A stretch of DNA of 64,000 bases from an uncultured delta proteobacterium (GCA_963789265.1 CAWBKB010000008.1:71698-135697), one strand, 5' to 3'; positions 2,103 to 29,435 are shown, counted from the first letter of the stretch. Translations and numbers: made by a program. The notes: a model not told the origin generated them from the letters alone.

Positions 2103-2321
2103 CGCCGTCCCGCGCGTCGGGCATTCGCGTTAAGTTAAGGCAATTTCGTTCCTTTTCGGGAGGTCCGTGCAGGCCGAGCACGATCAAAGTCCCCCTTTTA
2201 TAAAGGGGGATTTAGGGGGATTTTCAAGTAGTTATCCCAAAATCCCCCCTGGCCCCCCTTTACGAAAGGGGGGAACCCCCGCGTCTCGCCGGGTTAAGTT
2301 AACGCCGTCCCGCGCGTCGGG
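2103..2321. repeat. MITE-like element carrying a CCCCCTTT..AAAGGGGG repeat
   Basis: 19-bp direct repeat CGCCGTCCCGCGCGTCGGG at 2103 and 2303; GTTAAGTTAA motifs near both ends; internal palindromes. Confidence 0.6.
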
Positions 2322-2355
2322 GGATCGGGCATTGCCCGATCTACCCTCGGTCATT

Positions 2356-3810
2356 TCATCCCGTAAGGCATGGATGACGCGCAGCTTCCACCTCATCCAT
2401 CCTTCTTACCTTGCATTTTGACGGAGCCCCGCGCAGAAGTTCCGGGTTTTCCTTTGCCTCCCTCGCAATCGCCTTCAATGCGTCAACAAACTGGTCCAAG
2501 TCCTCTTTTGATTCCGTCTCGGTCGGTTCAATCATTATCGCTCCGCTCACAACCAGCGGAAAGTAAATCGTCGGCGGATGATAACCGTAGTCCATGAGGC
2601 GCTTGGCAATATCCATGGTGCTGACTCCGCTCTCCTTCTGGAATTTGTCGGAAAATACGCACTCATGCATGCAAGGTCTGTCATACGGGAGATACAGCAC
2701 GCCTTTGAGCTTCTCCTTTATGTAATTTGCATTCAGCACGGCAAGTTGGCTGGCCCTGGTCAGTTCACGGCCCATACTCAGTATGTAGCTGTAGGCCTTT
2801 ATCATGACCCCGAAGTTGCCGTAAAACGCATGCAGTTTCCCTATAGACTCCGGAAATTCCTCTGACAGCACGAACCCTTCCCTGGCCCGGATCACTCGAG
2901 GGATCGGTAAGAACCGCTCCAGGCTCTTCTTTACGCAAATCGGTCCTGAACCCGGCCCACCGCTGCCGTGCGGCGTCGAAAAGGTCTTGTGCAAGTTCAG
3001 ATGTTGAATATCAATCCCCATGTCACCCGAACTCACTATGCCCATAACCGCGTTCATATTTGCGCCGTCGCAATAGACAAGCCCGCCTCTTGAGTGAACT
3101 ACTTCCGCTATTTCTCTTATGTTTTCTTCGAACAGGCCGAGCGTATTGGGATTTGTGACCATGATTCCGGCGACGTCGTCGTCCATGACACGGGCAATGG
3201 TTTCTGTGGATAGAATGCCCTGTTCGTTGGATTTCACATTTACGGGGCGAAATCCACAAAGGGCTGCACTGGCCGGATTGGTGCCGTGCGCAGTGTCCGG
3301 AACTATGATTTTGGAGCGTGCTGAGCCCTTGCTCCTGTGATAAGCAGAAATGATGAGCATCCCGGCCAGTTCCCCTTGCGCGCCGGCAGCCGGTTGCACG
3401 GAGACCGCGTCCATGCCGGTGATTTCCGCCAAAAGCCTCTCAAGATCGGAAATCAGTCTGAGGGCCCCTTGTGACAAAGGAGTCGGCAACAATGGATGTG
3501 CCGCGGCAAACCCCGGTCGGCTCGCTTGTTTCTCGTTGACCTTGGGGTTGTATTTCATGGTGCATGAGCCGAGAGGGTACATTCCGCTATCGACTCCAAA
3601 GTTCCACTGAGAGAGCCTGGTGTAGTGGCGAACTACCTCCACTTCGCTCAGGTCGGGGAAGTCCGGAGGCTCGCCAACAAGCTCCTCCGGCACCGGTGAC
3701 TCCTCGACGTCTCGCCTCGGCAGGCTCATTCCGGATCTGCCTTTTCTTCCTCGCTCCCAGAGCAGCGGTTGGTCCAGTATCAATCCTGTGCGGCCCGGAA
3801 ATTCTTTCAT
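2356..3810 (-). CDS. gcvPB: Glycine dehydrogenase (decarboxylating) subunit 2
   Basis: YPLGSCTMKYNP and PLP motif HLNLHKTF; start placed at MKEF inside the MITE target duplication. Confidence 0.95.
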   Translation of the reverse strand: MKEFPGRTGLILDQPLLWERGRKGRSGMSLPRRDVEESPVPEELVGEPPDFPDLSEVEVVRHYTRLSQWNFGVDSGMYPLGSCTMKYNPKVNEKQASRPGFAAAHPLLPTPLSQGALRLISDLERLLAEITGMDAVSVQPAAGAQGELAGMLIISAYHRSKGSARSKIIVPDTAHGTNPASAALCGFRPVNVKSNEQGILSTETIARVMDDDVAGIMVTNPNTLGLFEENIREIAEVVHSRGGLVYCDGANMNAVMGIVSSGDMGIDIQHLNLHKTFSTPHGSGGPGSGPICVKKSLERFLPIPRVIRAREGFVLSEEFPESIGKLHAFYGNFGVMIKAYSYILSMGRELTRASQLAVLNANYIKEKLKGVLYLPYDRPCMHECVFSDKFQKESGVSTMDIAKRLMDYGYHPPTIYFPLVVSGAIMIEPTETESKEDLDQFVDALKAIAREAKENPELLRGAPSKCKVRRMDEVEAARHPCLTG

Positions 3811-3811
3811 T

Positions 3812-3933
3812 GTATGCATTCAGTTACAGCCGGAATTTGCGAGTGGCTTCGTAGGGTGGGCTTTCTAGCCCGCCATTGAACGGGAGTTTCCCCGGCAGGC
3901 TGGAAGGCCTGCCCCACAAGACTGAATGGTTAC
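3812..3933. mobile_element. 122-bp MITE with 8-bp TSD
   Basis: TIRs GTATGCATTCAGT / ACTGAATGGTTAC; TSD CTTTCATT at 3804-3811 and 3934-3941. Confidence 0.85.
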
Positions 3934-9398: not shown

Positions 9399-10031
9399 AT
9401 GACACACAGCTTCCTTATCACAGTGCTATTCCCATTTGTGTTTGGCCTTATGGCTCTGTTCTTCTTAGTCATTGGGCTACGAGGCATCGTCCTCAAAAAG
9501 CCCTTTGTGATTTCGTCGCGGTGGATGCTCATTGTGGTGTTGCTCGGTTTCACGCCCTCAGTGATGATGTCGATACCGGCTTCGGGACTGGGTGATCACA
9601 GAGCACACGTGACGATTTTTCACTTGCTCATCCCGGCTGTCTTAATCATTGTGGGCATTTTCCTGTTTTTGGCTCTGAAGGGATACACAGCGTTCGGCAT
9701 TACCGATGTCTCCTTCCGAGAGGCACTGATGGCTGCCCTGACTAAACTTAATTTACCTTATGAGGAGACACTTGCCGCAGTAAAGCTGCCCACAATAGGC
9801 GCGGATCTTCAGGTGGCCGTCCAGTCCTGGATAGGGACCGGACAACTGAAGATGAAGCAACGACAATTCGGCACGGTATTGCGTAATATCGTAAGCGGAA
9901 TGAATGAGTACTTTCAGAGAGGTGAGAATCTAAAGGTGAATTTGACCTGCTGCATATTTTACGTCCTCATAGGAGTCTTTCTGCTAGTGCTCGCCGGCGT
10001 CTTCTTGTTCGCCTTCGGCAAAACGATTTGA
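9399..10031 (+). CDS. Hypothetical membrane protein
   Basis: GGAGG RBS; about 4 hydrophobic segments. Confidence 0.7.
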   Translation: MTHSFLITVLFPFVFGLMALFFLVIGLRGIVLKKPFVISSRWMLIVVLLGFTPSVMMSIPASGLGDHRAHVTIFHLLIPAVLIIVGIFLFLALKGYTAFGITDVSFREALMAALTKLNLPYEETLAAVKLPTIGADLQVAVQSWIGTGQLKMKQRQFGTVLRNIVSGMNEYFQRGENLKVNLTCCIFYVLIGVFLLVLAGVFLFAFGKTI

Positions 10032-10459
10032 CACGATGCTCTCGCAACAGCGAGCCTTAGTCGCGAGGGTGTGCAAGCGTTTCGACTGGGGTGCCCTTGC
10101 GATGCTATCAACTTGTCAACAGGTCGGGATCGGCAGCGTAACCATTCACTTACTAGCGGGAAGAGATTGTCATTGCGAGCCAAGCGAAGCAATCTTTTCC
10201 TTTAAACGCCGCTTAGATTGCCGGTGGGACGGGCATCTTGCCCGTCATCCCCAATGGCAGGCAGGATGCCTGCCCCACCATATCCTCGCGGGGATTGTCA
10301 CTTGTTTGATGGCGCACTGGTATAACCTGTCAACAGGTCGGGATCGGCGGCAAAGATTCTGATTGACTGACCACATTGCCGTGAGTTACTCTCAACAAAA
10401 GCACAAATTGGGCTCTTTCAGCAACGTGAAGATGGTTTTGATTTTCCCGGCTCTCCCCG

Positions 10460-10881
10460 CATAGGCAGTAACTTAGCCTCGTCGGACGCCGGATTCCCCT
10501 CTTTCGTGAGGGGGGGGAAGGGGGAGGATGACAACCGACCGAAATTGTAGACGACCCTTTGTTATTTTTACGCGTGTGGGGCAAGTGGGAATTTTGAGCT
10601 AACCCGTTGAAAATCCCCTTAAATCCCCCTTTAAAAAGGGGAACTTTGATGGGCCTTGGCCCGTTGGACCTCTCAAGAAGTAACGAAATGCCCTTAGTAC
10701 TAGATTTCCCAAATACGGTGACGTTAAGCCGGTACGGAAGAAGATTGCTTTCCCGCGAGGCGCGGGACTCGCAATGACAGATAGTGGGAATGTCATTGCG
10801 AGGAGTGAAACGACGAAGCAATCTCCACCGTGAAAATGCGTGACCGGATTTATGAAACAGAGCAATTAGTTAGCGCCTATG
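10460..10881. repeat. Composite MITE/REP cluster with CATAGGC-type ends
   Basis: CATAGGCAGTAACTTAG at 10460 and TTAGTTAGCGCCTATG ending 10881; internal CCCCCTTT..AAGGGG and GTCATTGCGAG..GCAATC repeats; no clear TSD. Confidence 0.55.
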
Positions 10882-10949
10882 GGATCAGGCTCCGGGGTGT
10901 TGTCTGACACCATGTATTCAAGTTCTCAAACTTAACTAGGAGGTGGGAA

Positions 10950-11192
10950 ATGCATTTAATCGGATTCTTGATAATCGGGCTCATAGCTGGTTGGCTGGCC
11001 GAGACAATCATGAAAGGGCGAGGGGCCGGTCTAATCGTTAACCTAATTGTAGGGGTAGTCGGTGCCTTCGTCGGGGGCCATCTTTTCGGCTATTTGGGGT
11101 TGCACATGCACGGGATCATCGGGTCCTTGATTGCAGCCGTAGTTGGGGCCCTGATACTGCTTTTTATCGTGGGGCTAATCAAGAAGGCTTGA
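10950..11192 (+). CDS. GlsB/YeaQ/YmgE family (transglycosylase-associated) membrane protein
   Basis: IIGLIAGWLA...NLIVGVVGAFVGG pattern; GGAGG RBS. Confidence 0.9.
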   Translation: MHLIGFLIIGLIAGWLAETIMKGRGAGLIVNLIVGVVGAFVGGHLFGYLGLHMHGIIGSLIAAVVGALILLFIVGLIKKA

Positions 11193-11227
11193 ACGGCAGT
11201 AATTGGTTATCTCACAAAGCTGTAATC

Positions 11228-11417
11228 GTTCACCGCGGAGAGCGCAGAGACCGCGGAGAATTCTATTTTCTCCGAACGCTTATGCGAATTGTGTACAGCA
11301 GGTTCCGGTATGTGATCCCGCGATGCGGAAAGGACAATGCCGACCTGACTGTACGCGCGGTAACTGACGTGGAATTGAATAAGCTATCCTTTATCTCTGC
11401 GAACTCTGCGGTGAATC
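11228..11417. repeat. TTCACCGC(A/G)GAG...CTCTGCGGTGAA inverted-end repeat, copy 1
   Basis: Ends shared with 21506-21703; internal sequence differs. Confidence 0.7.
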
Positions 11418-11997
11418 TTGAGGCCCGCTGAAAGGTTACACAAAGCTTTCACGAGCATTCTCGCGTCCCAGTCGGGGTGGATCGTGTGACTTGCCCCCCG
11501 ATGGTGGTTTCGGAAAAATGTCACCACAGAGGCACAGAGGTGCTCGGCGCACGGCCAAGATTCCTTGATAAGCATCGAGGCCCGTAGAGATTGGGGAGGT
11601 TACTCGAACGAAGTATTTTTCTCGTTCCCAGTCCCGCGAGACGCGGGATTGGGAACCAGAACTCCAAGGGATGCCTTATTTTAACGCTTATCCCCATACG
11701 GGGGCATGACGGCATGTACGGCGCGGGTTTGAACCCCGCGCCGTACCATCTGACGGTTTTCTCTGGGCTCTCTGTGTCTCTGTGGTTAACTTTCTCTTTC
11801 TTTCAGTTCACCTCACCCACCAAAATAAATCCTGCCCACTGTGGAGTAATGGAGTCTGACATGAGCGGCGATCCTCCTCGTGCAAGAAGCAAGACCCTCT
11901 CAAGTTGCCACTCTCGGACCGGCTACGTGAGGCGGCAGATTGGGGGAGTGTTTGGATCGGCCGAAAGCCAGACCCCACTGCAGAACTTTTCTGGGAT

Positions 11998-12489
11998 TCA
12001 GCCATAGAAGCCCATGTTGGGCAGGAGGTTATATTGCATGACTGTACGTTCCTTGCCCAGGTATTCGACTCGTTCCCGAAGAGACCATCCGAGGCGCTTG
12101 TAGAATGTTGGCAACTGGCCCGAGGTGTAAAGGTACAAAGTGTCGTAGCCAACTGATCGCGCCTCGGCAGCGACCGCACGAACCAAGGCTGCTCCAGTGC
12201 CATGCCGCCGGTAGATCGGGAAAACGAAGAGCTGGCCGAGCCAAGGCGTGAGACCTTTCCTGACTTCCATGTCGCAGCGACGAAGGGTTCCCGACCCGAC
12301 CAGTAGCCCACTCAGGGAGGCGACGAAAACCGACAGAATCTTTGAGCACTCCGCTGTTTCGCCAAGGAAACCAATATATTCCTCAACAGTGGCAGATCCG
12401 GTAAGCGGACCCCACTGATCGAAGTGAGCGTGGGCGAGAACGTTTATCCAGTCTCTATGCAGGGCGAGTTTTTCGATTATCACATGCAA
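11998..12489 (-). CDS. GNAT acetyltransferase
   Basis: PWLGQLFVFPIYRRHGTG and FYKRLGW motifs. Confidence 0.9.
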   Translation of the reverse strand: MHVIIEKLALHRDWINVLAHAHFDQWGPLTGSATVEEYIGFLGETAECSKILSVFVASLSGLLVGSGTLRRCDMEVRKGLTPWLGQLFVFPIYRRHGTGAALVRAVAAEARSVGYDTLYLYTSGQLPTFYKRLGWSLRERVEYLGKERTVMQYNLLPNMGFYG

Positions 12490-12928
12490 CCCCTGTTGTT
12501 GCTGCCCAACTATGAGCTATGAGAGTCACGTTTTCACTCACCGTTGCCGGTTGCCCGAACTTGAGGGTTCCATGATATTTGTCCTGGGCAGAATCGCCTC
12601 CCCGTCTGCCACCGTTGCAGAGATCGTTTCGGGTCATCGAGGAAGTTGTTCTTGCTATCCTACCTGCATTTATTGCAGCAAAGGGGTCACCCATTAAAAG
12701 GCCCTCTGTCAAGGAAAAAACTTCCCCGGTGCAAGGAAAGGGTTGTTTACTTGCTGAGGGTACGGCCGAGCACGCGACGTGCCGGGTTTCAGTCATAGTC
12801 AAGGGCAGACCCCACTCACGAGGGTCAACCGGGTGAACACCCGTGGCCATTATCGGGAAGTACTTAGGGACTTTCTCAGAGCTTCAAATGAGCCAAGAGG
12901 CGTCGCCGGCCCCAGGGGAGAGGAGGCT

Positions 12929-13204
12929 CTACCGGCGCCAGCCCCGTCCATAGTAACCTCTACCATAACCGCCATAATATCCGCCGTAATACCCCGGGTA
13001 GCCGTACCCGCTGTATCCTCCGTATCCCGCGTACCCGCCGTATCCCTCATATCCGCCGTATCCAGGCACGGCGGAACCAGGACCGTATACGGTGTTCGGT
13101 ATACCGGGCGCGGGCCACTTGCTGACTGTGTAACCCCAACACGTGCAAGCGCTAAATGCCAGCATCGCAAGGATTGCAAGAATTATGGTGGATTTTTTGA
13201 CCAT
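12929..13204 (-). CDS. Small secreted Gly/Tyr-rich protein
   Basis: Signal peptide, GYGGY repeats, AGGAGG RBS. Confidence 0.7.
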   Translation of the reverse strand: MVKKSTIILAILAMLAFSACTCWGYTVSKWPAPGIPNTVYGPGSAVPGYGGYEGYGGYAGYGGYSGYGYPGYYGGYYGGYGRGYYGRGWRR

Positions 13205-13679
13205 ACCTTCATCCTCCTTTCCACTAGGACCATTCTTGTCATGAATCGGTCCTCTTTGGGGTGCCTGTTAAGACTAACCCAAAGCCAGAATATCACTGAC
13301 TAATTTGGAAGTCAATGAATATCGAAATGCGTTTCCCCTTCCTTCTTCACTCCTGGCTGTCTTTGGAAATGCCCCACGCCACCGTGGATTTTGGGGTCAG
13401 GCTTGAAATGTGAAATGAGTGGCCGCACGGAAATTTCAACATAATTCGGCCATATTCAAGGTGATAACAACCTGTTCAGGCAAGACATCGAAGATTGGAA
13501 TGGATGTCACCTTTTAATGGGTGACCCCTGCCCTTGCCAGTGCTGCTTCGTAGTCTTCATCCGTGTGTATTGGTCTGATTTCCATTTACTACTCTCCGTA
13601 GAGATGGATCATAATATAGCGGCACAGTCCTCTAGAGTGAGAGCTGAAATAGGGCAGCGATCGCGAAGGAATTAGGGTA

Positions 13680-13708
13680 GGCCTCTCCGATTGTTCCTCG
13701 GAGAGGCC
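13680..13708. terminator. Hairpin downstream of cydB
   Basis: GGCCTCTCCGA-N7-TCGGAGAGGCC. Confidence 0.5.
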
Positions 13709-13756
13709 CTTATGTGCAGTAGGGCGTCCCGCGAAGCGCGGGATTGCCCGCCGATG

Positions 13757-14782
13757 TCAATAAGCTTCTTCGGAAGCCAGATCTTCCTTAGTTATCTTGC
13801 CCCTGAACACATAGTAGCCCCAAATCTGGTAGATGATCACGATGGGCACAAAGGTTAGTGCCACACCGAGCATGATTTTCAGAGTGAGTGGGCTCGAAGC
13901 GGAGTTGAAAACGGTCAAGCTGTAAGCCGGATTTAAACTTGACGGAAAGAGATTGGGATACAGCCCGATCACGCCGAACAGGGTCGCGCCCACGATGGTT
14001 AATGACGATGCAAACCATGCGCTCCACCAGGCTTTCTTATGAATGAGCCAGCGCACGGCCAAAAGAGCCAGTACCGTTATGAGAGGAATCACCAATAACG
14101 CCGGGTGAGTCAGGTAATTCGTGTAAAGACCGGTCGCAAACCACGTCGCGGCCAGGAATACCACCGCAACGACGAGCAGAACCCACCATATTCCACCGGC
14201 TGTCTTTCCGGCCCGCTCCTCAAGAGGAGCCTCAGCCTTGATCGCCAGCCACAGTGCCCCATGAACGAGGAAGAGAAGGACAAAGAGCACTCCTCCGAGC
14301 AGTCCATAGGGATTCAGTAGCGTGAGCAAGTTGCCGTGAAATATGCCATCCGCGTCAATCGGTATCCCTCGGAAGATGTTCGCGAATGCGACACCAAGCA
14401 AAAGAGCCGCGACGAAACTTCCCAAAAAGTGGCAAACATCCCACAGCTTTTGCCATCCCTCGCCTTCGAGCTTGCCCCTGAATTCCAGGGCAACCGCGCG
14501 CACGATCAAGGCAAAGAGAAGCAGCAGGAGAGGAGTGTACAGAGCGCTGAACATGACTGCATAAGTTGTCGGAAAAGCCGCGAAAGTAACCCCGCCTGCG
14601 GTGATTAACCATACCTCGTTCCCATCCCAGAAGGGTCCCATCGAGTTGTAGATCACTCGCCTATCGCTATCGGTACGGGCCACAAAAGGGGCGAGGATTC
14701 CCAGCCCGAGGTCAAAGCCGTCGAGCATAAAATAAACAGCCCATAGGATACCCCATAGCAAAAACCAGATCGTCTCTAACAT
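13757..14782 (-). CDS. cydB: Cytochrome bd ubiquinol oxidase subunit II
   Basis: LDGFDLG and GPFWDGNEVWL motifs. Confidence 0.96.
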   Translation of the reverse strand: MLETIWFLLWGILWAVYFMLDGFDLGLGILAPFVARTDSDRRVIYNSMGPFWDGNEVWLITAGGVTFAAFPTTYAVMFSALYTPLLLLLFALIVRAVALEFRGKLEGEGWQKLWDVCHFLGSFVAALLLGVAFANIFRGIPIDADGIFHGNLLTLLNPYGLLGGVLFVLLFLVHGALWLAIKAEAPLEERAGKTAGGIWWVLLVVAVVFLAATWFATGLYTNYLTHPALLVIPLITVLALLAVRWLIHKKAWWSAWFASSLTIVGATLFGVIGLYPNLFPSSLNPAYSLTVFNSASSPLTLKIMLGVALTFVPIVIIYQIWGYYVFRGKITKEDLASEEAY

Positions 14783-14796
14783 GATCTTCCCCCCTT

Positions 14797-16123
14797 CTAC
14801 TGCGTTGCGCCGGAGATCGGCTCCGGAACCTTGCCTGCATACCTGGCGATCAAATAGAAGCAGCCTATCCCGAGCAAAGTGTAAATGATTACAAAGGCCG
14901 CCAGAGAGATGCCGACCTGGGAGTTAGCCAGTGTGGATGCGGCATCGCTGGTTTTCATCATGCCGTAAACTATCCACGGTTGCCGACCGACTTCGGTTAC
15001 TGTCCAGCCGAGGGCAAGCGCTACATAAGGGAGCGGAATACAATACATCAACAGCCGAAGAAGCCCTGGGCTGTCTTCCGGATTGTTCCGCTTGAACCAG
15101 GCAATAATGCTGACGATAACGAAAAAGATCCCGAGCGCCACCATCAGCCTGAAGGCCCAGAAGGTCGCGGCAACGGGCGGTCTCTCGTTTTTGGGCCATT
15201 CCTTGAGCCCTTTGTACACAGCATTCGCGTCACCGTAAGCAACCCAACTCAATAGCTTGGGTATCCCCAGAAACTGCACTGAGTTGCGCTCGTTAGCCTC
15301 ATCGGGAATTTGGATCAAATACAACGGAGCGCCTGGCGTGGACTCCCAGAACCGCCTCAGTGGCCGCTGCCTTGGTCGGCTGGGCTTTTACCATCTCTTT
15401 GCCGTGGAAATCTCCTATCCCAAGTTCGGCGATAGAAAAGATTACAGCAAAAATGGCCGCCATCTTGAACGATTGCTTGAAAAATGGGACGTTTTGACGC
15501 CGAAGTAGATGATACGCGCATACGCCCATTACAAAGAACCCGGTTAGGATGTACGCTCCGCTTAACACGTGCAGAAACATCAAAAGAGCGTAACTCTGTG
15601 TAATAACAGCCCAGAAATCGGCAAGCTCCGCACGACCGTTTCTGATTACATAGCCTACCGGGTGCTGCATCCAGGAGTTTGCCACCAGGATCCAATACGC
15701 GGAAAAATTCGAGGCGGCAACAACCAGCCAGATGCAAACCGCGTGAGCTTTCGGAGAAAGCTTATCCCAGCCGAATACCCACAAACCGATGAACGTGGAT
15801 TCAAGGAAAAAGGCAACTGTAGCCTCTACCGCCAGTAGGGAACCGAAAATGTCCCCCACGTACTTGGAATATCGGGACCAGTTTGTACCGAATTGAAATT
15901 CCAGGGTTATGCCGGTAACCACTCCCAGAGCAAAATTGATGACTAACAACTTGCCCCAGTATTTGGCCATCTTTTTGTATTGTTCGTCCCCGGTACTTAC
16001 ATATCGCGTCTCCATTATGGCAACTAGAATGGAAAGGCCCAGCGTAAGGGGAACGAATAGAAAATGGAAATAAGTTGCCACTGCAAATTGCAACCGGGAA
16101 AGTGTGACAGCGTCCATAGCCAT
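14797..16123 (-). CDS. cydA: Cytochrome bd oxidase subunit I (one +1 frameshift near 15350, probably a sequencing error)
   Basis: LSRLQFA..HFLFVP, EFQFGTNW and EVGRQPW motifs; removing one base restores EAVWESTPGAPLYL. Confidence 0.93.
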
Positions 16124-16149
16124 TTACCCCCTTGGTGGATTGACACCAT

Positions 16150-16647
16150 TTAATCAATCCTTTTGAACGTTGCTCCCTTTGAACCGCAAACCGGACAAAC
16201 ATCCGGAGCATGCTGTCCCACGGTGTACCCGCAGGATGGACACACATAATAGGAATAACTCTCCTGCGATGCTCCCAGACTGTCCAGGAGCTTGGTGTAA
16301 AGGCTCGCGTGGACTTTTTCCACTTCGTTAGCGTAGTTGAAGCTTCTCTCCGCGGCTTTATGCCCTGCGGCTTTGGCCGCTTCAATCATTCCGGGGTACA
16401 TCTGTTTGAATTCGAACGTTTCACCGGCAATGGCCGCTTCAAGATTCTGGGTTGTGGTGCCGATTCCTTTGAGAGCTCTCAGGTGATTGTGCGCGTGGAC
16501 GGTTTCTGCTTCTGCCGCTGCTCGAAACAGCTTGGCGGCCTGGGGATATCCTTCCTTATCCGCCTTTTCCGCAAAGGCGAGATACTTGCGATTAGCCTGT
16601 GATTCCCCTGCAAACGCCTCTTTCAAGAATTGTTCTACTTCTTGCAT
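16150..16647 (-). CDS. rbr: Rubrerythrin
   Basis: AFAGESQANRKY, ETVHA and EKVH motifs; C-terminal CPSC..CPVC. Confidence 0.95.
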   Translation of the reverse strand: MQEVEQFLKEAFAGESQANRKYLAFAEKADKEGYPQAAKLFRAAAEAETVHAHNHLRALKGIGTTTQNLEAAIAGETFEFKQMYPGMIEAAKAAGHKAAERSFNYANEVEKVHASLYTKLLDSLGASQESYSYYVCPSCGYTVGQHAPDVCPVCGSKGATFKRID

Positions 16648-16890
16648 GACTCCCTGTTCCTCCTCGTTGTTGATAATTTGGTTTGATACGGACAAAATCC
16701 GCATTTCATATTAAGAACGACAAGATCGGGGAAACATCCCTTGTTCAGGTTCCCCAAATCCGACCTGGAACCCCCAACATTCGCCTGCATCCTCATTTCT
16801 CCATAAGATAAACGAGAATTTCAGCAATAGCCAAAAATTCTTGTAGATACGTCAAGGGAGGAACGTATTTGAAGACGTTCCTCCGCGACC

Positions 16891-17289
16891 TCAATTCTTC
16901 CTGAAACAATCAGGGCAAATTCCAGTGAATTCCATCCAGTGCGATACCACTTTGTACCCGCAGGATCTTTGGGCTGCCTTTTCGATCAGCGGGAAGGGCT
17001 CAATATCGATGTCGTCCACTCTTCCGCATTCAATGCAGCGGATATGGTAATGATTTTCGGTTGTCCCGTCAAAGCGTCTCTGAGTACCGGCGAGGTCCAT
17101 TTTCAGCACTATGCCTTCCGCGCTCAGGATTTCAAGGTTGCGATACACGGTGGCAATACTGATCTTCGGCAAGCGCCGGCGAACCAAGTGATGAAGGTCC
17201 TCGGCCGTAGGGTGACAGGTGACCTTCTTTAGCTCTTCCAGAATGATCCTACGCTGCTTAGTCATTCTACGTAATGGTTTCGAGTCCAT
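16891..17289 (-). CDS. Fur/PerR-family regulator
   Basis: HPTAE, ATVYRNL, HYHIRCIECG and CPDC motifs; upstream of rbr, so PerR-like. Confidence 0.92.
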   Translation of the reverse strand: MDSKPLRRMTKQRRIILEELKKVTCHPTAEDLHHLVRRRLPKISIATVYRNLEILSAEGIVLKMDLAGTQRRFDGTTENHYHIRCIECGRVDDIDIEPFPLIEKAAQRSCGYKVVSHWMEFTGICPDCFRKN

Positions 17290-17382
17290 AGCGGGATGTT
17301 GCGTTCCTGTTGCTATTGAGATGCAATATAAATAAGCTAACCGAAGCTAGATTCTCATGTCAAGTCTTTTTTGCAACGACTT

Positions 17383-17500
17383 GTATGCATTCAGTTACAA
17401 CCGAAATTTGCGGGTGGCTTCGTGGGGTGGGCTTTCTAGCCCGCCATTGAACAGGGGTTTCCCCGGCAGGCTGTCCCGCGCCTCGCGGGACTGTCCCACC
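17383..17500. repeat. Truncated second copy of the 3812 MITE
   Basis: About 90 bp nearly identical to 3812-3902; right TIR absent. Confidence 0.8.
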
Positions 17501-17709
17501 ATTCACTCCTCGCAATTGCGGATGTTCAGAACGGCTCACCGGTGTGCACGTTTGCAAACACCGGGTGGGCCGGAATCGGCCCGCGCGTTTTGCATCGACA
17601 CGCCCGCTCGGAAAACAAGTGTCAATAGCCGTTGACTAAGATGGTATAAGTCTCTTATAATAAGTTTCTCAAGTGTAGTCTGAATTCTGATGCGCAGGTA
17701 TGAGAACGA

Positions 17710-20041
17710 ATGAGCAGGAGAGTCGTGCCAATGGATGGCCCATACAATGGTCCGGACGACTCCAGGTCTTCAAGTATTGATGCCGGGAGAGACCGCCTTG
17801 CCCGACCTTTGAGCCCGGGTCCGGGAGGCATGTCTTCTCAACAATGGTCATATAATGATATAGGTGATGATTCCAATCCAACACTCAGAGATTACATAGG
17901 TATTGTAATTAGAAGAAGGTGGGCGGCCCTCGCGGCGTTTGTTGTTATCATTTCCATATCTGTTGCCTACACATTCACTGCCAAACCTTTATACCGCTCT
18001 GCCGCTACCATAGAATTTCAACAGAAGAAGCCGAAGCAAGATGATCGGGTATACGGGAGCCCCGAGTACCGACCAGTACAAGGGTTATCTAGCTACCCAG
18101 TTGGAGATTTTGAAGTCACGCAGCCTGGCAAAAGCTCTGATCGCCAAAATGAACCTTTCGGATTCTCCTGAATTCACGTCTTCAAAAGGCCGGCTTGCCG
18201 GATTGCGTTCCGCGCTTCTCCTGTGGTTCCGGATATCAAATCCCCAAACCAACACAAAGAAGGCCCTTCCAAGCCTCAACAAACTCGTAACCAACGTTCT
18301 TGGGAGAGTTTCGGTCAAGCCCATCAAGACCAGCAACCTGGCCTCAGTGAGCATGGATGCGAAAAGCCCCGCCTTCGCCCCGGAGATGCTGCGCAATTAT
18401 CTGGATCTTTATCTCGAAATCAACCTGAAAGAACGCCGGAAAGAAAGTTTGGAGGCGAGTGTTTGGTTGAAAGAAGAGCTGGCCAAGGTCCAAAAGAAGC
18501 TGCTGGAAGCCCAAGCAGATTTGGTCGGATTCCTGATCGACAACGGAATCGTTGACTCGTCGAGCGAAACCGGAGTCAGCCCGGTTATGGACCTACTTGC
18601 CAAGACAATGGAGGCCCACAGTAAGTCGCGTGAGGCCCGTTTACGGATGCAGGCATTGGATGCTCAGAAGATCAGAGAACAGGGAGCAGTCCTGCCGAAG
18701 GACGTCAATACCGAATATATTGGTAAACTTAAGGAGCAATTGGCATCGTTTGAGGTCGAATATACGCAGATGAAGGGACTTTATTCATCTGACTTTCCAA
18801 AGGTGAAGATCCTGCGCGAGAAGATCAATTATTTGAAAGATAGAATTCACAAAATTGAAAAGAACGTTCTCGATTCAGCTTTGGACACGGCAAAGAGAGA
18901 AGAAAATCTTTTCAAAGGGTCTGTTAAGTCTGCACGGGATGAGGCCAACCGCGTGAAGGCTCTGGATGCTCAACACATGCTCCTTAAGAAAAATGTGGAA
19001 ACCAATGAGGAATTCTACAAGATCATTTTGAAAGAATATAAAGAAAATGACATCAAGGCGAGAACAATCAGCAACAACGCCAGAATAGTTGACACACCCA
19101 CCGAGCCCGAAGCGCCTTGCTGGCCAAAGAAGAAGTTGTTTCTTCTGATAGGTGGCTTGATGGGATTGGTGGGGGGAATTGCCGCGGCCTTTGCAGTGGA
19201 AAGATTGGACAATACGGTTCAGACCCCCGAAGAAATCGAAAGAGATTTCAACGTTCGGAGGCTGGCTATCGTGCCGGATCTAGACACACTGGCGAAGGCG
19301 CAAGGCAGGGAACTGAGAAATATTCCTTATGAATTCGTCGCCCACAGGCAACCGAAGTCTCCTATGTCAGATGCCATTCAGAATATCCACACTTCCATCT
19401 CGCTGTCAAATGCGGACAAACCAGTGCGATGCATGGTTGTATCCAGCCCTAATCCTGCTCAGGGCAAAACCCTGATTTCGATTTCCGTAGCCACCGTGAT
19501 GTGCTCGGGCCACAAGAAAGTGGTGATAGTTGACGCAGATATGCGTAAGCCTAGAGTCCATCAGGTTTTCGGTCATCGCGATCCGGGCCCCGGTCTATCA
19601 ACGTTGCTTGGAGGCTTTGGCCCACAAATATCGCAAGCAGTGCATGCTCATAGCATAAAGGGTTTATTTTACATTACTTCAGGACCACCGGTCGAAGATC
19701 ACTTGAGCTTGCTTCGATCCGATCGCATGAAACGGTTGGTCGATCAGTTAAGGCGCGCCTTCCATTACATAGTATTTGATTCTCCCCCTATCTTGGGATT
19801 CTCGGACGTCCCCACACTTTGCACGCACGCTGACGGATTGATCATGGTCGCCAAGCAGGGGCACTTGGGCCGAGATGCGCTTCGGGAGGCCCTTAATGCC
19901 ACATCCTCGGTTAATGGCTGCGAGATTCTGGGAGTAGTGCTGAATAAGGCTCATGCTTCGGGGGAATACGGTTTTCCATACTTCGGATACAATCGTGACT
20001 ACTATTACGGAAACTACAGATATTATGGCGATCGGTCCTGA
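17710..20041 (+). CDS. Wzc/GumC polysaccharide co-polymerase with BY-kinase (frameshift near 18070)
   Basis: Wzz N-terminus, coiled coil, Walker A variant SPNPAQGKT, DADMRKP, DSPP, Tyr-rich tail. Confidence 0.9.
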
Positions 20042-21175: not shown

Positions 21176-21505
21176 GAACTTGAAGTCTTTTTATCAAGTA
21201 TAACATCCAATACGTGGCGCTATATATCATAATCATAAGGAAAATGTTACTATAAAAATGCTATCCTCCCCCCGTCCGAGTCTCTTTGCTCTCTGGACCC
21301 GCTTGGAACCGGCAGCAGTCAGGCCTGTCGCTCTAGCCTTTGCACAGGATTTGAGCCGCGGCGAGATCATTCTTGAACATCTTGCGGTAGCGGTCCCCCG
21401 GCATCTCCGAACAAGCGCCCCTGGAAAGCCCGTTGGTGTGACGGGCTCGAACTCAGTGTCGTTGTGCGCCCGCCGAGAGGATAGATCAACCAATTTGAGG
21501 TAATC

Positions 21506-21703
21506 GTTCACCGCGGAGATCGCAGAGATCGCAGAGATCGCGAAGGGTTCTGTTTTCTGTGCCATTCTCCCAGGTGAGGCGCAAGGGATTCCGGTCTCTG
21601 GCACTGAAAGTGCTACCGGCCTGACTGAGTAGCCCCGCTACTTATGTGGGCTTGCGGAAGCCATTTTTTCTCTCTGCGTTCTCGGCGCACTCTGCGGTGA
21701 ATC
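21506..21703. repeat. TTCACCGC...GCGGTGAA inverted-end repeat, copy 2
   Basis: Ends match 11228-11417. Confidence 0.7.
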
Positions 21704-21816
21704 CTGATTGCCCGCCGAACGACTACAATTTGAGGGAGCCGCACATCATTCGGTTGAGCCCTCAAAGTTCAATCACTATGTCACGAGTCGGTCCCCCCTA
21801 TTGGCTCCAAAAGAAA

Positions 21817-27436: not shown

Positions 27437-29112
27437 GAGAGTGTCTCAAAACGGTTGTAGTGGCACGATGACGACTCTCGGGGTGGTAGGGTGCGGTTAA
27501 TCTCGCACCTTGGCCTCCCTTGTCTCCGACGAGCCGGGGCCGGCTATGAGTATGCCTCAGGCAGCCATGAGTCACTCTCCGTCCTGATGTCTTAGGCCGC
27601 GGTTAGCACCAGACGCCCCGTCAGCCAATGGCTGTAGAGCTTCTTGAGATTCAAGGTGGCGCACATCAAAGACCATTGAGCCCTCGCATTGGATAATCCG
27701 GACACGGTCCACCGTCTAAAGTCCAAGTGGCTCTTTATCCATGCAAAGACCGGCTCAATGATCACCTTGCGGGCTCGGAGTAGCGTCTTGCTTTCCGGGA
27801 CCTCCCGTTTCTTGCGGTGGCGCTCAACTGCGTCACGATAGATGTTAATGTCTATGAGACGGCCATTCTTGCTCTTGCTGCACTTCCACCGTTCAGGACA
27901 CGTCAAGTAGTCCCGGCATCGATACCGCCGGATCTCGTTTCCGTTTTTTCCTGTGACTTTCTTCTGAAGAAAGTTCAGCGATGCGCCTTGCGGACAAATA
28001 CAGACGTCTCGCTCTTGGTCGTAGACGAACTGGGAAGCGTGATAAGGGTCCCATTGAGCGCCTTTTTCCGCAGCGGACTCTCCCGACGACTTGGCGACCA
28101 AGACCTCGTACTCCTTCTCTTCGGCCAACGCGATTTGAGCCGATGCGAAGTATCCTGCGTCCGCCACGGTTTCCTCTGCGGTTGCGCCCAAATTTTCCTG
28201 AACTCGATCCAGCATGGGAACAAGCTGCCCATTGTCATTGCCTTCGTCGACCACTTCCTCAGCCACAATCATGCCGCTTTGTTGGTCTGCCACCGCTTGA
28301 GCATTGTAAGAGGGCTCAGTAGACCGCCGGTTCTTCATGTACCGGGCATCCGGCTCGCAGGGATGGACGACCTTCTTGTCAGTCTTATCCAATTCCTGCA
28401 AGGCCTTCTGTATCCGCTCCTTGCGTTTCAACTCGTCCTGCAGGGCTTCGGGAAGACGCCATTCGCCACCCTCCTCTTGCTCGCACCTCTCTGTCTCCGT
28501 CATGACGTCGGCAACGCACTTGTCCAAATTCTCAAGCATCCGCTCCAACTGATCTTGGTTCTTGAACTTCTCCCGAGATGATCCGACAGGGATCTTGGTT
28601 CCATCCAATGCATGAACCGCCATACCTATCAACTCGGCTTTGACTGCCACTTGAACCGATTGTTTGAATATTCCCTTGAAAACCTTCTTGTTGTCCCTCC
28701 AGAATCGCCACAGGGTATTATGATCCGCTGCATTCATACCCGTCAGCCAAATCAATCCCATGTTCTCCATGCATGCCTTCTCAAGCTTGCGCGATGACCT
28801 GATTCTGCTGAAATAGCCGTAGAGCCATGCCTTCAACAAAAGATCGGTAATATAGGGAGGACGGCCCGTTTCGCCATTCGGAACTCGAAAACCCAGCACC
28901 TCCAAATCCAAGGAATCCACAAAGTCTCCTATGAAGCGCGCTGGATGATCAGGCCCTATCCAGTCATCTATAGCGGGCGGAAGCAGAAACACCTGCTTGT
29001 AGTCGGCTCTGATTTGCGGCATAATCCTTTCCCTCTCCGATTCTCTTTTCACATCTCATTAGTAGAATCGGTTGAGAATCGCGAGCCCAAAATCGACTTT
29101 TGAGACAGTTTC
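27437..29112 (-). mobile_element. IS1182-family insertion sequence
   Basis: IRs GAGAGTGTCTCAAAA / GAAACTGTCTCAAAA; TATA duplication at 27433-36 and 29113-16. Confidence 0.9.
27592..29022 (-). CDS. IS1182 transposase
   Basis: GRPPY, SSRKLE, DGTK, YNAQ, ADAGY and EPVFAWIK motifs. Confidence 0.95.
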   Translation of the reverse strand: MPQIRADYKQVFLLPPAIDDWIGPDHPARFIGDFVDSLDLEVLGFRVPNGETGRPPYITDLLLKAWLYGYFSRIRSSRKLEKACMENMGLIWLTGMNAADHNTLWRFWRDNKKVFKGIFKQSVQVAVKAELIGMAVHALDGTKIPVGSSREKFKNQDQLERMLENLDKCVADVMTETERCEQEEGGEWRLPEALQDELKRKERIQKALQELDKTDKKVVHPCEPDARYMKNRRSTEPSYNAQAVADQQSGMIVAEEVVDEGNDNGQLVPMLDRVQENLGATAEETVADAGYFASAQIALAEEKEYEVLVAKSSGESAAEKGAQWDPYHASQFVYDQERDVCICPQGASLNFLQKKVTGKNGNEIRRYRCRDYLTCPERWKCSKSKNGRLIDINIYRDAVERHRKKREVPESKTLLRARKVIIEPVFAWIKSHLDFRRWTVSGLSNARAQWSLMCATLNLKKLYSHWLTGRLVLTAA

Positions 29113-29167: not shown

Positions 29168-29435
29168 CATAGGCGTCAAAATAAGCTTCAAGTCCTCTTC
29201 GTCCCGGAGGGACGGCACCATAGTAGCCCGGCGATTTATCGCCGGGAATGAACGGCCAAGAGACTTTGCTTCGTCGCCGAGGGGCGCCCGAAGGATTCAT
29301 CCTTCGGGCGCCCCTCGGCGACGAAGAACTGAATCATTGCTCATGGGTCACCCGGCAATGAATTGCCGGGCTACTATCTCGACGCCCCGCTGGGGCTCAT
29401 AAGGCAGCACGGGTTACCTTATTTTAACGCCTATG
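29168..29435. mobile_element. 268-bp MITE with 18-bp TIR and 11-bp TSD, inserted in a REP
   Basis: CATAGGCGTCAAAATAAG / CTTATTTTAACGCCTATG; TSD CCTCTCGTGGG at 29157-67 and 29436-46. Confidence 0.88.

Follow-up and report, generated by a model that had tools for sequence, protein, structure and literature searches.

Small dispersed repeats (SDRs) of 21–27 nt, which form hairpins and are nested in other repeats and mini-transposons, were reportedly described by Elhai in 2008 from Nostoc and Anabaena, and the mechanism that mobilises them is said to be unknown. More widespread comparators are the repetitive extragenic palindromic (REP) sequences, for which the main text of PMC3733652 describes GTAG- and CGTC-tagged super-families with an unpaired tag at one end of a stem-loop, a predominance of head-to-head or tail-to-tail dimers and a usual size of 20–40 bp. 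According to the same text, REP families have short loops alongside long self-complementary loops, there are REP dimers made only of units with different loops, and REPs occur within small palindromes that also exist empty, in hundreds of copies; CGTC-tagged REPs have no dedicated transposase, and CGTC-1 REPs are equated with the dRS3 repeats of Neisseria (PMC3733652). Here, a stretch of 64,000 nucleotides from an uncultured delta proteobacterium (GCA_963789265.1, CAWBKB010000008.1:71698-135697), analysed as a whole and called the window below, was examined for a 17-bp palindrome, TCCCGCG-N3-CGCGGGA (the 17-mer), that recurs within different palindromic repeats. An original prediction, made from this DNA alone, had read the 17-mer as a substitute for the loops of four unrelated hairpins, possibly acted on by an enzyme for single-stranded hairpins, and had found no named mechanism for it; the alternative self-pairing loops, mixed-loop dimers and REPs nested in palindromes in the main text of PMC3733652 are precedents, as the nested SDRs would also be, and this last point did not stand.

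The 17-mer has exactly four perfect matches in the window, with the positions and loops originally claimed (Table 1), and none of 100 dinucleotide-preserving shuffles contained any. All four copies are intergenic and lie within 6.7 of the 64 kb, a clustering with P = 0.004 for uniformly placed points and P = 0.006 for points drawn from positions outside open reading frames (ORFs). When up to two mismatches were allowed, a single extra site appeared (2308-2324, one mismatch), and relaxing the loop length to 1–9 nt gave no additional match in the window. The loops are ARR/YYT (ARR on one strand) in all four copies, for which P = 2.4e-4 if loops were free. Folded by itself as DNA, each copy gives a stable hairpin (-8.4 to -9.5 kcal/mol) with a perfect 7–8-bp stem and a 3-nt loop, and its 17–19 nt correspond to the short end of the REP range. 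Single TCCCGCG half-sites are not in excess in the window (11 on the plus strand, seven of them inside the four copies or three partial copies), and for this reason a reading as single half-sites, similar to DNA uptake sequences (DUS), was dropped.

The hosts of the four copies (sites 1 to 4) are one GATTGC..GCAATGAC unit, one long palindrome in a unit resembling a miniature inverted-repeat transposable element (MITE), and two GTAG/GTGG-tagged REPs. The host flanks were as first written down, with pairing strength that differs between sites, and the hosts do not go back to one ancestral repeat. The clearest comparison is offered by site 4, which lies in a repeat of ~110 nt, D1, present in the window as an empty and a filled copy (3810-3902 and 17381-17473 are 94% identical over 93 nt). 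Empty D1 consists of two REPs placed tail to tail: a GTAG REP at 3851-3874 on the plus strand (GTAG, GGTGGGC, 6-nt loop, GCCCGCC), which is also the untouched counterpart of the site-3 unit, and a GTGG REP at 3894-3917 with its tag on the minus strand (on that strand GTGG, GGCAGGC, 6-nt loop, GCCTGCC). In the alignment, GAAGGC at 3903-3908 stands exactly opposite 17474-17490, with a CTG at either edge in each copy. The replaced GAAGGC comprises two bases of one arm and four loop bases; in filled D1, a 12-bp stem that includes a single T.T mismatch and a single G.T pair arises, followed by CCAC, and the old stem is partly left as a bulge. The internal control that had been proposed, an ordinary GAAGGC in the copy at 3812 where the copy at 17383 carries the 17-mer, is thus borne out. 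At site 1, the filled unit and an adjacent empty unit form a tail-to-tail pair with a 12-nt perfect inverted repeat (10768-10779 and 10791-10802); the pair is predicted to take up a three-way fold (z = -7.6), with 5 bp of host pairing (ATTGC/GCAAT).

Further copies were sought in public genome contigs with the pattern TCCCGCGARRCGCGGGA (ARR loops only) together with 1-kb flanks, and the counts that follow are sample estimates, given among the matches listed. At least 128 further copies were found in at least 120 loci. Among the 120 loci listed, 45 come from metagenome-assembled genomes (MAGs) labelled delta proteobacterium, Thermodesulfobacteriota, Desulfomonilaceae/Desulfomonile or Syntropho-, and the mini-hairpin seems abundant in Desulfomonilaceae-, 'delta'- and Thermodesulfobacteriota-type genomes. 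Sixteen assemblies have 2–6 loci each, and one MAG has six loci with seven copies, of which four share 8 kb of a single contig. Clustering of the flanks of the 132 copies listed gave 93 contexts, of which 75 are singletons, and most copies share the 17-mer and one or two bases. The 129 copies with 25-nt flanks were divided into 56 that are high in GC or spanned by an ORF of at least 600 nt, and 73 others; the 56, mostly actinobacterial and similar, look like chance or coding matches. The bases directly before and after the 17-mer are R..Y in 56 of the 73 mid-GC, non-coding-looking copies (A..C 24, G..T 14, A..T 9, G..C 9) versus 22 of the 56 others, and the family consensus is therefore wider than the pattern searched.

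Filled and empty hosts recur in these loci. In the GATTGC..GCAATGA family, 20 units were found in the window and the listed loci, nine with and eleven without the 17-mer (the L120 unit fits only a loose pattern); the empty forms measure 25, 30, 31 or 33 nt, and at least six left/right junctions can be told apart among the nine filled units. Filled and empty units are adjacent and oppositely oriented in the window, L001, L028 and L029, and ARR lies on the same strand as GATTGC in eight of the nine filled units. On one MAG contig, L083 is an untouched REP (tag, 8-bp stem, loop AGCC), and L082 is the same REP with five bases (CACAG) swapped for the 17-mer. Substitution rather than simple insertion, as originally proposed, is accordingly found in the filled and empty paralogues of D1, of the inverted GATTGC..GCAATGAC pairs and of L082 versus L083, and the alignments define junctions at which the 17-mer has replaced a few host bases. 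An exception is a second copy in L082, 70 bases on, which has the loop TCG instead of ARR and lies in the host 5' arm with the host hairpin complete and GCG on both sides; it looks like a plain insertion. The GTAG shell GTAGGGGC..GCCCCTAC holds the 17-mer in L039, L056, L070 and L090 and other, quite different inner palindromes in L055, L056 and L061. Single junctions are also held in common: L086, from another MAG, has the site-4 right junction (a one-mismatch 17-mer followed by CTGTCCCACC) with another left flank, the site-2 palindrome has just its right arm in common with L055, L028, L029 and L101 have one left junction in common, and in one MAG the flanks of L007 and L027 are the same, with loops that are exactly inverted (AGA and TCT). 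In GTRG-tagged hosts, the 17-mer ends 2 nt before the intact host 3' arm in four cases (sites 3 and 4, L082 and L005) and starts 8–9 nt from the start of the tag in five (sites 3 and 4, both L082 copies and the GTAGGGGCA family). This fixed spacing, which comes from small numbers and partly related hosts, may hint at a defined mechanism.

The module is thus the same in unrelated hosts, hosts have filled and empty paralogues, copies lie close together in the window, and one lineage is enriched in the motif. Based on these observations, the 17-mer is best explained, with a rough probability of 0.55, as the conserved core of a REP-like mini-hairpin, a portable module that is rarely copied into other palindromic repeats, the composites multiplying afterwards. 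The fuller consensus of this mini-hairpin would be R-TCCCGCG-ARR-CGCGGGA-Y. On rare occasions, another palindromic repeat, such as a GTAG-tagged REP, a GATTGC..GCAATGAC unit or a longer palindrome, could receive a copy of the module in its centre or 5' arm, with 5–7 host bases displaced. The two L082 copies suggest another route, in which the module would simply be inserted and the inner arm, now redundant, would be lost afterwards. The composite could then multiply as a unit and give rise to mosaics like the bacterial interspersed mosaic elements (BIMEs) in repeat-rich intergenic regions. Loop orientation is mostly fixed within host families, and composites therefore seem to have spread mainly as units and not by repeated fresh insertion. 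The transfer may take place on single-stranded, hairpin-forming DNA, either by template switching or by gene conversion, between hairpins that are extruded while the DNA is replicated, or by means of a trans-acting, hairpin-specific nuclease/ligase of the type of the REP-associated tyrosine transposases (RAYTs), encoded elsewhere in the genome.

Several results weigh against this explanation. Copy number and lineage enrichment are only sample estimates because they come from the matches listed, with ARR loops, and the taxon labels are the titles of MAG records, in which binning errors are possible. Paralogues alone cannot set the direction of change, gain or loss. The position at the hairpin apex, claimed for every copy, is strong at site 2 and moderate at site 1; it is weak at sites 3 and 4, where there are 4–5 host pairs (fold z = -1.8 and -2.3), and across genomes. 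Flank pairing runs of at least 4 (offsets up to 4 nt) were found in 23 of 129 copies versus 10.9% of permuted flanks (P = 0.012), runs of at least 5 in 8 of 129 versus 3.0% (P = 0.04), and directly adjacent perfect extension was no better than in permuted flanks; these contiguous-run tests were used instead of left-right pairs in constrained minimum-energy folds, which were too noisy (6.1 vs 4.8). With pairing runs this weak and no excess of adjacent extension, copies thus tend to lie at the tips of longer hairpins but do not do so as a rule. Direct repeats at the junctions, as expected from target-site duplication, were not enriched (k = 3: 3 of 73 vs a permuted mean of 1.3), and no conserved target motif was found there. 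REP tags at the 17-mer are rare (CGTC within 2 nt in 4 of 73, GTAG within 12 nt in 4 of 73), and dimers of the 17-mer were not seen in the window, where host units do form inverted pairs. Finally, no Y1/RAYT transposase (PF01797-type) was detected in 70 window ORFs (all 62 of at least 110 aa and eight shorter) or in 145 of the 223 ORFs flanking listed copies, a sample from which high-GC, probably chance loci were left out. The search for RAYT/IS200-like genes near the motif thus gave no support to the HUH (RAYT/TnpA-like) enzyme that had been suggested. On the whole, the separable module in unrelated hosts and its replacement of a few host bases are borne out in the original prediction, whereas the constant apex position, the enzyme and the absence of a named mechanism are not.

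A bolder reading takes the 17–23-nt palindrome as a very small mobile element in its own right, which a dedicated HUH enzyme of the RAYT or IS200 type would excise and reinsert, or copy, into the loops of other hairpins. The same module in unrelated hosts and in the 93 flank contexts of the copies listed would fit such an element, as would the insertion-like L082 copy with its intact host hairpin and GCG on both sides, and the 2-nt distance from the intact 3' arm. A GTRG tag followed by 3–6 nt and the 17-mer was found in 14 of 129 copies, with a peak at a 5-nt spacer, which points the same way, and the main text of PMC3733652 reports that the RAYT of Escherichia coli recognises REP DNA in its single-stranded form and cleaves the GTAG motif. 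In this form, the palindrome itself would be the unit of movement, written into hairpins of unrelated repeat families in several bacterial phyla by a putative enzyme for single-stranded DNA at a fixed geometry, 8–9 nt from the start of the GTAG tag and ending 2 nt before the host 3' arm. However, many of the 5-nt spacer cases belong to one family by descent, no Y1 transposase came up in the window or the sampled flanks, and neither target duplication nor a conserved target motif was seen. The loop orientation, fixed in eight of nine GATTGC units, is better fitted by the inheritance of composites than by repeated insertion. The parasite of repeats first suggested is considered unlikely, and the specific version with the palindrome as the moving unit is equally doubtful.

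Somewhat less probable still is descent with loss, according to which every host family had the hairpin or a hypervariable centre from the beginning, empty forms arose by deletion or replacement of the palindrome, and nothing moved between hosts. Palindromes are prone to deletion. In addition, identical host-17-mer junctions are found in MAGs labelled as different phyla (the left junction of L028, L029 and L101, and the right junction that L086 shares with site 4), and composites are therefore old and inherited. On the other hand, the hosts are unrelated in sequence, and the same 14 stem bases would therefore need independent ancestry in every host. Each empty form is a full REP hairpin with a loop of its own, unlike the product expected of a deletion between the flanking CTG repeats, and junction positions vary within one host family. 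Among the 120 loci listed, no orthologue of the window locus was found: with blastn, matches were confined to short repeats (no longer than 217 nt at 82%), and tblastn gave one match, to an unrelated NTPase.

An operator is improbable. In such a case, a dimeric regulator or nucleoid protein would bind the 7-N3-7 palindrome, and copies would be selected near the genes controlled (perR-rbr-cydAB and neighbours). The perfectly conserved half-sites with a variable spacer recall this arrangement, and copies 3 and 4 lie on either side of the perR-rubrerythrin-cydAB cluster. The copies in other genomes, however, have unrelated housekeeping genes on either side, among them mreB, mur ligases, ruvAB and citrate synthase; these flanking genes are diverse and, in the listed loci, none matches the window neighbours, which argues against the operator of a regulon. 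The embedding of copies in repeats, at 3' as well as 5' gene ends (two window copies are at 3' ends), the constraint of the spacer to ARR/YYT, and R..Y flanks typical of a longer hairpin unit have already weakened this possibility further. The least likely alternative is chance or convergence of a very stable GC-rich hairpin, for instance as a terminator or a stabiliser of mRNA 3' ends. Some of the listed copies clearly belong here, such as that of L102 with a T run after it, the high-GC actinobacterial copies inside long ORFs and the L002 copy as a 1-nt indel variant of a CGTC-tagged REP; for the window copies, this alternative is already refuted by the shuffles without even one copy, the four identical 14-base stems within 6.7 kb, the lack of a T run after any of them (which also rules out a terminator reading) and, among the matches listed, the several copies per MAG in one lineage.

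The coordinates of the copies and repeat units are collected in Table 1.

Table 1. Copies of the 17-mer and associated repeat units in the 64-kb window, numbered from its first base.
Feature	Position	Strand	Loop	Remarks
17-mer copy 1	10751-10767		AGG	flanked T..C; DNA hairpin -8.4 kcal/mol
17-mer copy 2	11632-11648		AGA	flanked G..T; pattern search, DNA fold
17-mer copy 3	13727-13743		AAG	flanked G..T; pattern search, DNA fold
17-mer copy 4	17474-17490		CCT (minus strand: AGG)	flanked G..C, giving an 8-bp stem
Near-copy	2308-2324		CGT	1 mismatch in 3' arm; search with mismatches, DNA fold
Host unit of GATTGCTT..CTCGCAATGAC family, filled with copy 1	10743-10778	+		sequence, family comparison
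Empty 31-nt unit of GATTGCTT..CTCGCAATGAC family	10792-10823	-		inverted relative to the filled unit
Third unit of GATTGCTT..CTCGCAATGAC family, 25-nt empty form	10170-10194	-		
43-nt palindrome centred on copy 2	11619-11661			20-nt arms, 90% complementary
MITE-like 284-nt composite holding copy 2	11513-11796			bounded by 27-nt imperfect inverted repeats
GTAG-tagged REP-type unit with copy 3	13719-13752	+		tag, 4 nt, 17-mer, TT, intact GCCCGCC arm
Other empty REP, GGCAGGC..GCCTGCC-CCAC type	10256-10278	-		
Repeat D1, empty copy	3810-3918	+		between gcvPB and gcvPA
Repeat D1, filled copy	17381-17499	+		17-mer replaces GAAGGC of the second REP

Copy 1 is upstream of a small gene of the GlsB/YeaQ type, copy 2 in a repeat-filled gap adjoining a GNAT gene, copy 3 at 14 nt past the stop of cydB (13757-14782, minus strand) and copy 4 at 185 nt upstream of a Fur/PerR-family gene. 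The gaps between neighbouring 17-mers, 881, 2095 and 3747 nt, are irregular, and a similar spacing of ~3750 nt between L013 and L014 is a coincidence. A CRISPR or other regular array was ruled out by this irregularity; in L071 (24-426) and L092 (301-481), from MAGs labelled Bacteroidota, the 17-mer occurs in plain tandem repeats with periods of 52 and 41 nt, the 'spacers' between the repeats being identical. A context of the cyanobacterial HIP1 type (one GCGATCGC vs 1.6 expected) and an origin from tRNA or tmRNA, none of which was found, were likewise ruled out, and Rfam 15 gave no family at the gathering score over the copies and only chance-level hits (E up to 5) in 10000-18000. The 284-nt composite around copy 2 also contains a second hairpin with a 12-bp stem (11716-11746).

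Of the partial copies originally listed, those near 30 and 2107 have only the 5' half GTCCCGCG in common with the 17-mer, and the one near 10283 is a different small hairpin that was not counted as related. GC-rich hairpins with this half-site, at ~30 and ~2108/2308, flank a group II intron, which is indicated by an Rfam group-II-D1D4-6 match at 138-398 (124 bits) followed by a reverse-transcriptase ORF (623-1918). Other repeats were also noted. A MITE-like unit of ~200 nt with 22-nt inverted repeats of 9-nt tandem motifs (CGCAGAGA-type) is present at 11222-11421 and 21500-21707, and the ORF called over the first of these, at 11189-11431, is probably spurious; the ORF at 10330-10821 (minus strand) and other long ORFs that run through palindromic repeats have no Pfam match and are likely annotation artefacts. 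Members of a TCCCCC/GGGGGA-type hairpin family lie at 2190-2273 and 10603-10653 in the window and at 820-910 of L045, from a 'delta' MAG, with 79–81% identity. An Acido-Lenti-1 RNA match at 29200-29246 (37.4 bits, just over the cut-off) is found beside a hairpin with a perfect 27-bp stem (29269-29326), just downstream of a DDE transposase ORF (27592-29052); because the region 29184-29397 is 82% identical over 217 nt to L065, it is probably the end of an insertion sequence or a MITE. The near-identical copies at contig ends in L024, L073, L113 and L119, from one Xanthomonas assembly (100% over ~150 nt), probably represent the end of an insertion sequence as well.

Among the other genes of the window, cydA (cytochrome bd subunit I) is split into two overlapping ORFs on the minus strand (14797-15324 and 15299-16123), which correspond to profile positions 1-253 and 261-416, and this reflects either a frameshift or pseudogene or a sequencing error. 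A Wzz/Wzc-type tyrosine autokinase is similarly divided between overlapping plus-strand ORFs at 17710-18171 (Wzz) and 18041-20041 (GNVR, P-loop). A small ORF on the minus strand (12929-13204) has a signal-peptide-like N-terminus followed by a Gly/Tyr-rich repeat and no Pfam match. Judged only by gene content and by repeats that also occur in MAGs of this kind, the DNA probably comes from an anaerobe of the Thermodesulfobacteriota type.

These findings bear on the origin, diversification and spread of REP-type repeats, above all of those without a dedicated transposase. The filled and empty paralogues that lie side by side provide concrete junctions that any mechanism, driven by an enzyme or by replication, must explain, and the 17-mer is a simple motif with which such events can be traced in a poorly studied anaerobic lineage. 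If a unit of 17–23 nt did move, it would rank with the smallest known mobile DNAs and would give a handle on the origin and diversification of REP families. If it is only a loop variant of REPs, it would be a useful annotation that accounts for spurious ORFs across these intergenic regions, and little else.

In comparison with known systems, the 17-mer resembles the SDRs, in the features they are said to have, as a 17–23-nt unit nested in REPs, GATTGC..GCAATGAC units and a MITE-like unit; it differs in lineage and sequence and in being a perfect palindrome that replaces host bases. A likeness to MITEs is given by copy 2, which sits in a 284-nt unit with 27-nt inverted repeats, whereas the 17-mer as such shows no target duplication, and its stem is the only terminal inverted repeat that it has. 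As in REPINs, the doublets described with RAYTs in PMC3116915, host units occur in inverted doublets that can be folded as one long hairpin. In contrast to the REPIN–RAYT system, no RAYT was found in the window or the sampled flanks, and the doublets are asymmetric: a filled arm faces an empty one.

The CGTC-1 REPs, or dRS3, come close in sequence: a CGTC-tagged unit in L002, with an AT-started stem and a CCA tail, has TCCCGC-GAAA-GCGGGA twice and the 17-mer once, a difference of 1 nt, and a few family-A copies (L028, L029, L034 and L101) have CGTC directly before the 17-mer. The window copies and most others differ from them in having no tag, A/T stem start or CCA tail, and a loop of 3 instead of 4–5 nt. 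The main text of PMC3733652, taken without its figures, contains neither the motif string nor 'Desulfo' or 'Syntroph', and in the literature listings searched, strings of the host motif and of the 17-mer halves matched nothing but primers and papers on other subjects. With REPs and BIMEs in general, the 17-mer shares the character of a short GC-rich stem-loop, seen between genes four times in the 64 kb and, among the matches listed, at 2–6 loci in each of 16 assemblies, and its hosts at sites 3 and 4 are themselves GTAG/GTGG-tagged REPs. It differs from them in that it is as such untagged, with GTAG or CGTC in no regular place (4 of 73 each), is not found as a dimer, stays below 20–40 bp and forms one apical module common to hosts with unrelated stems. 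Since tag, dimer and RAYT are all missing, the 17-mer is therefore not placed among the tagged REP families. It works like tagged REPs and lives among them, and what seems new is one apical module common to hosts with unrelated stems, in a lineage for which the literature searched describes no such repeats.

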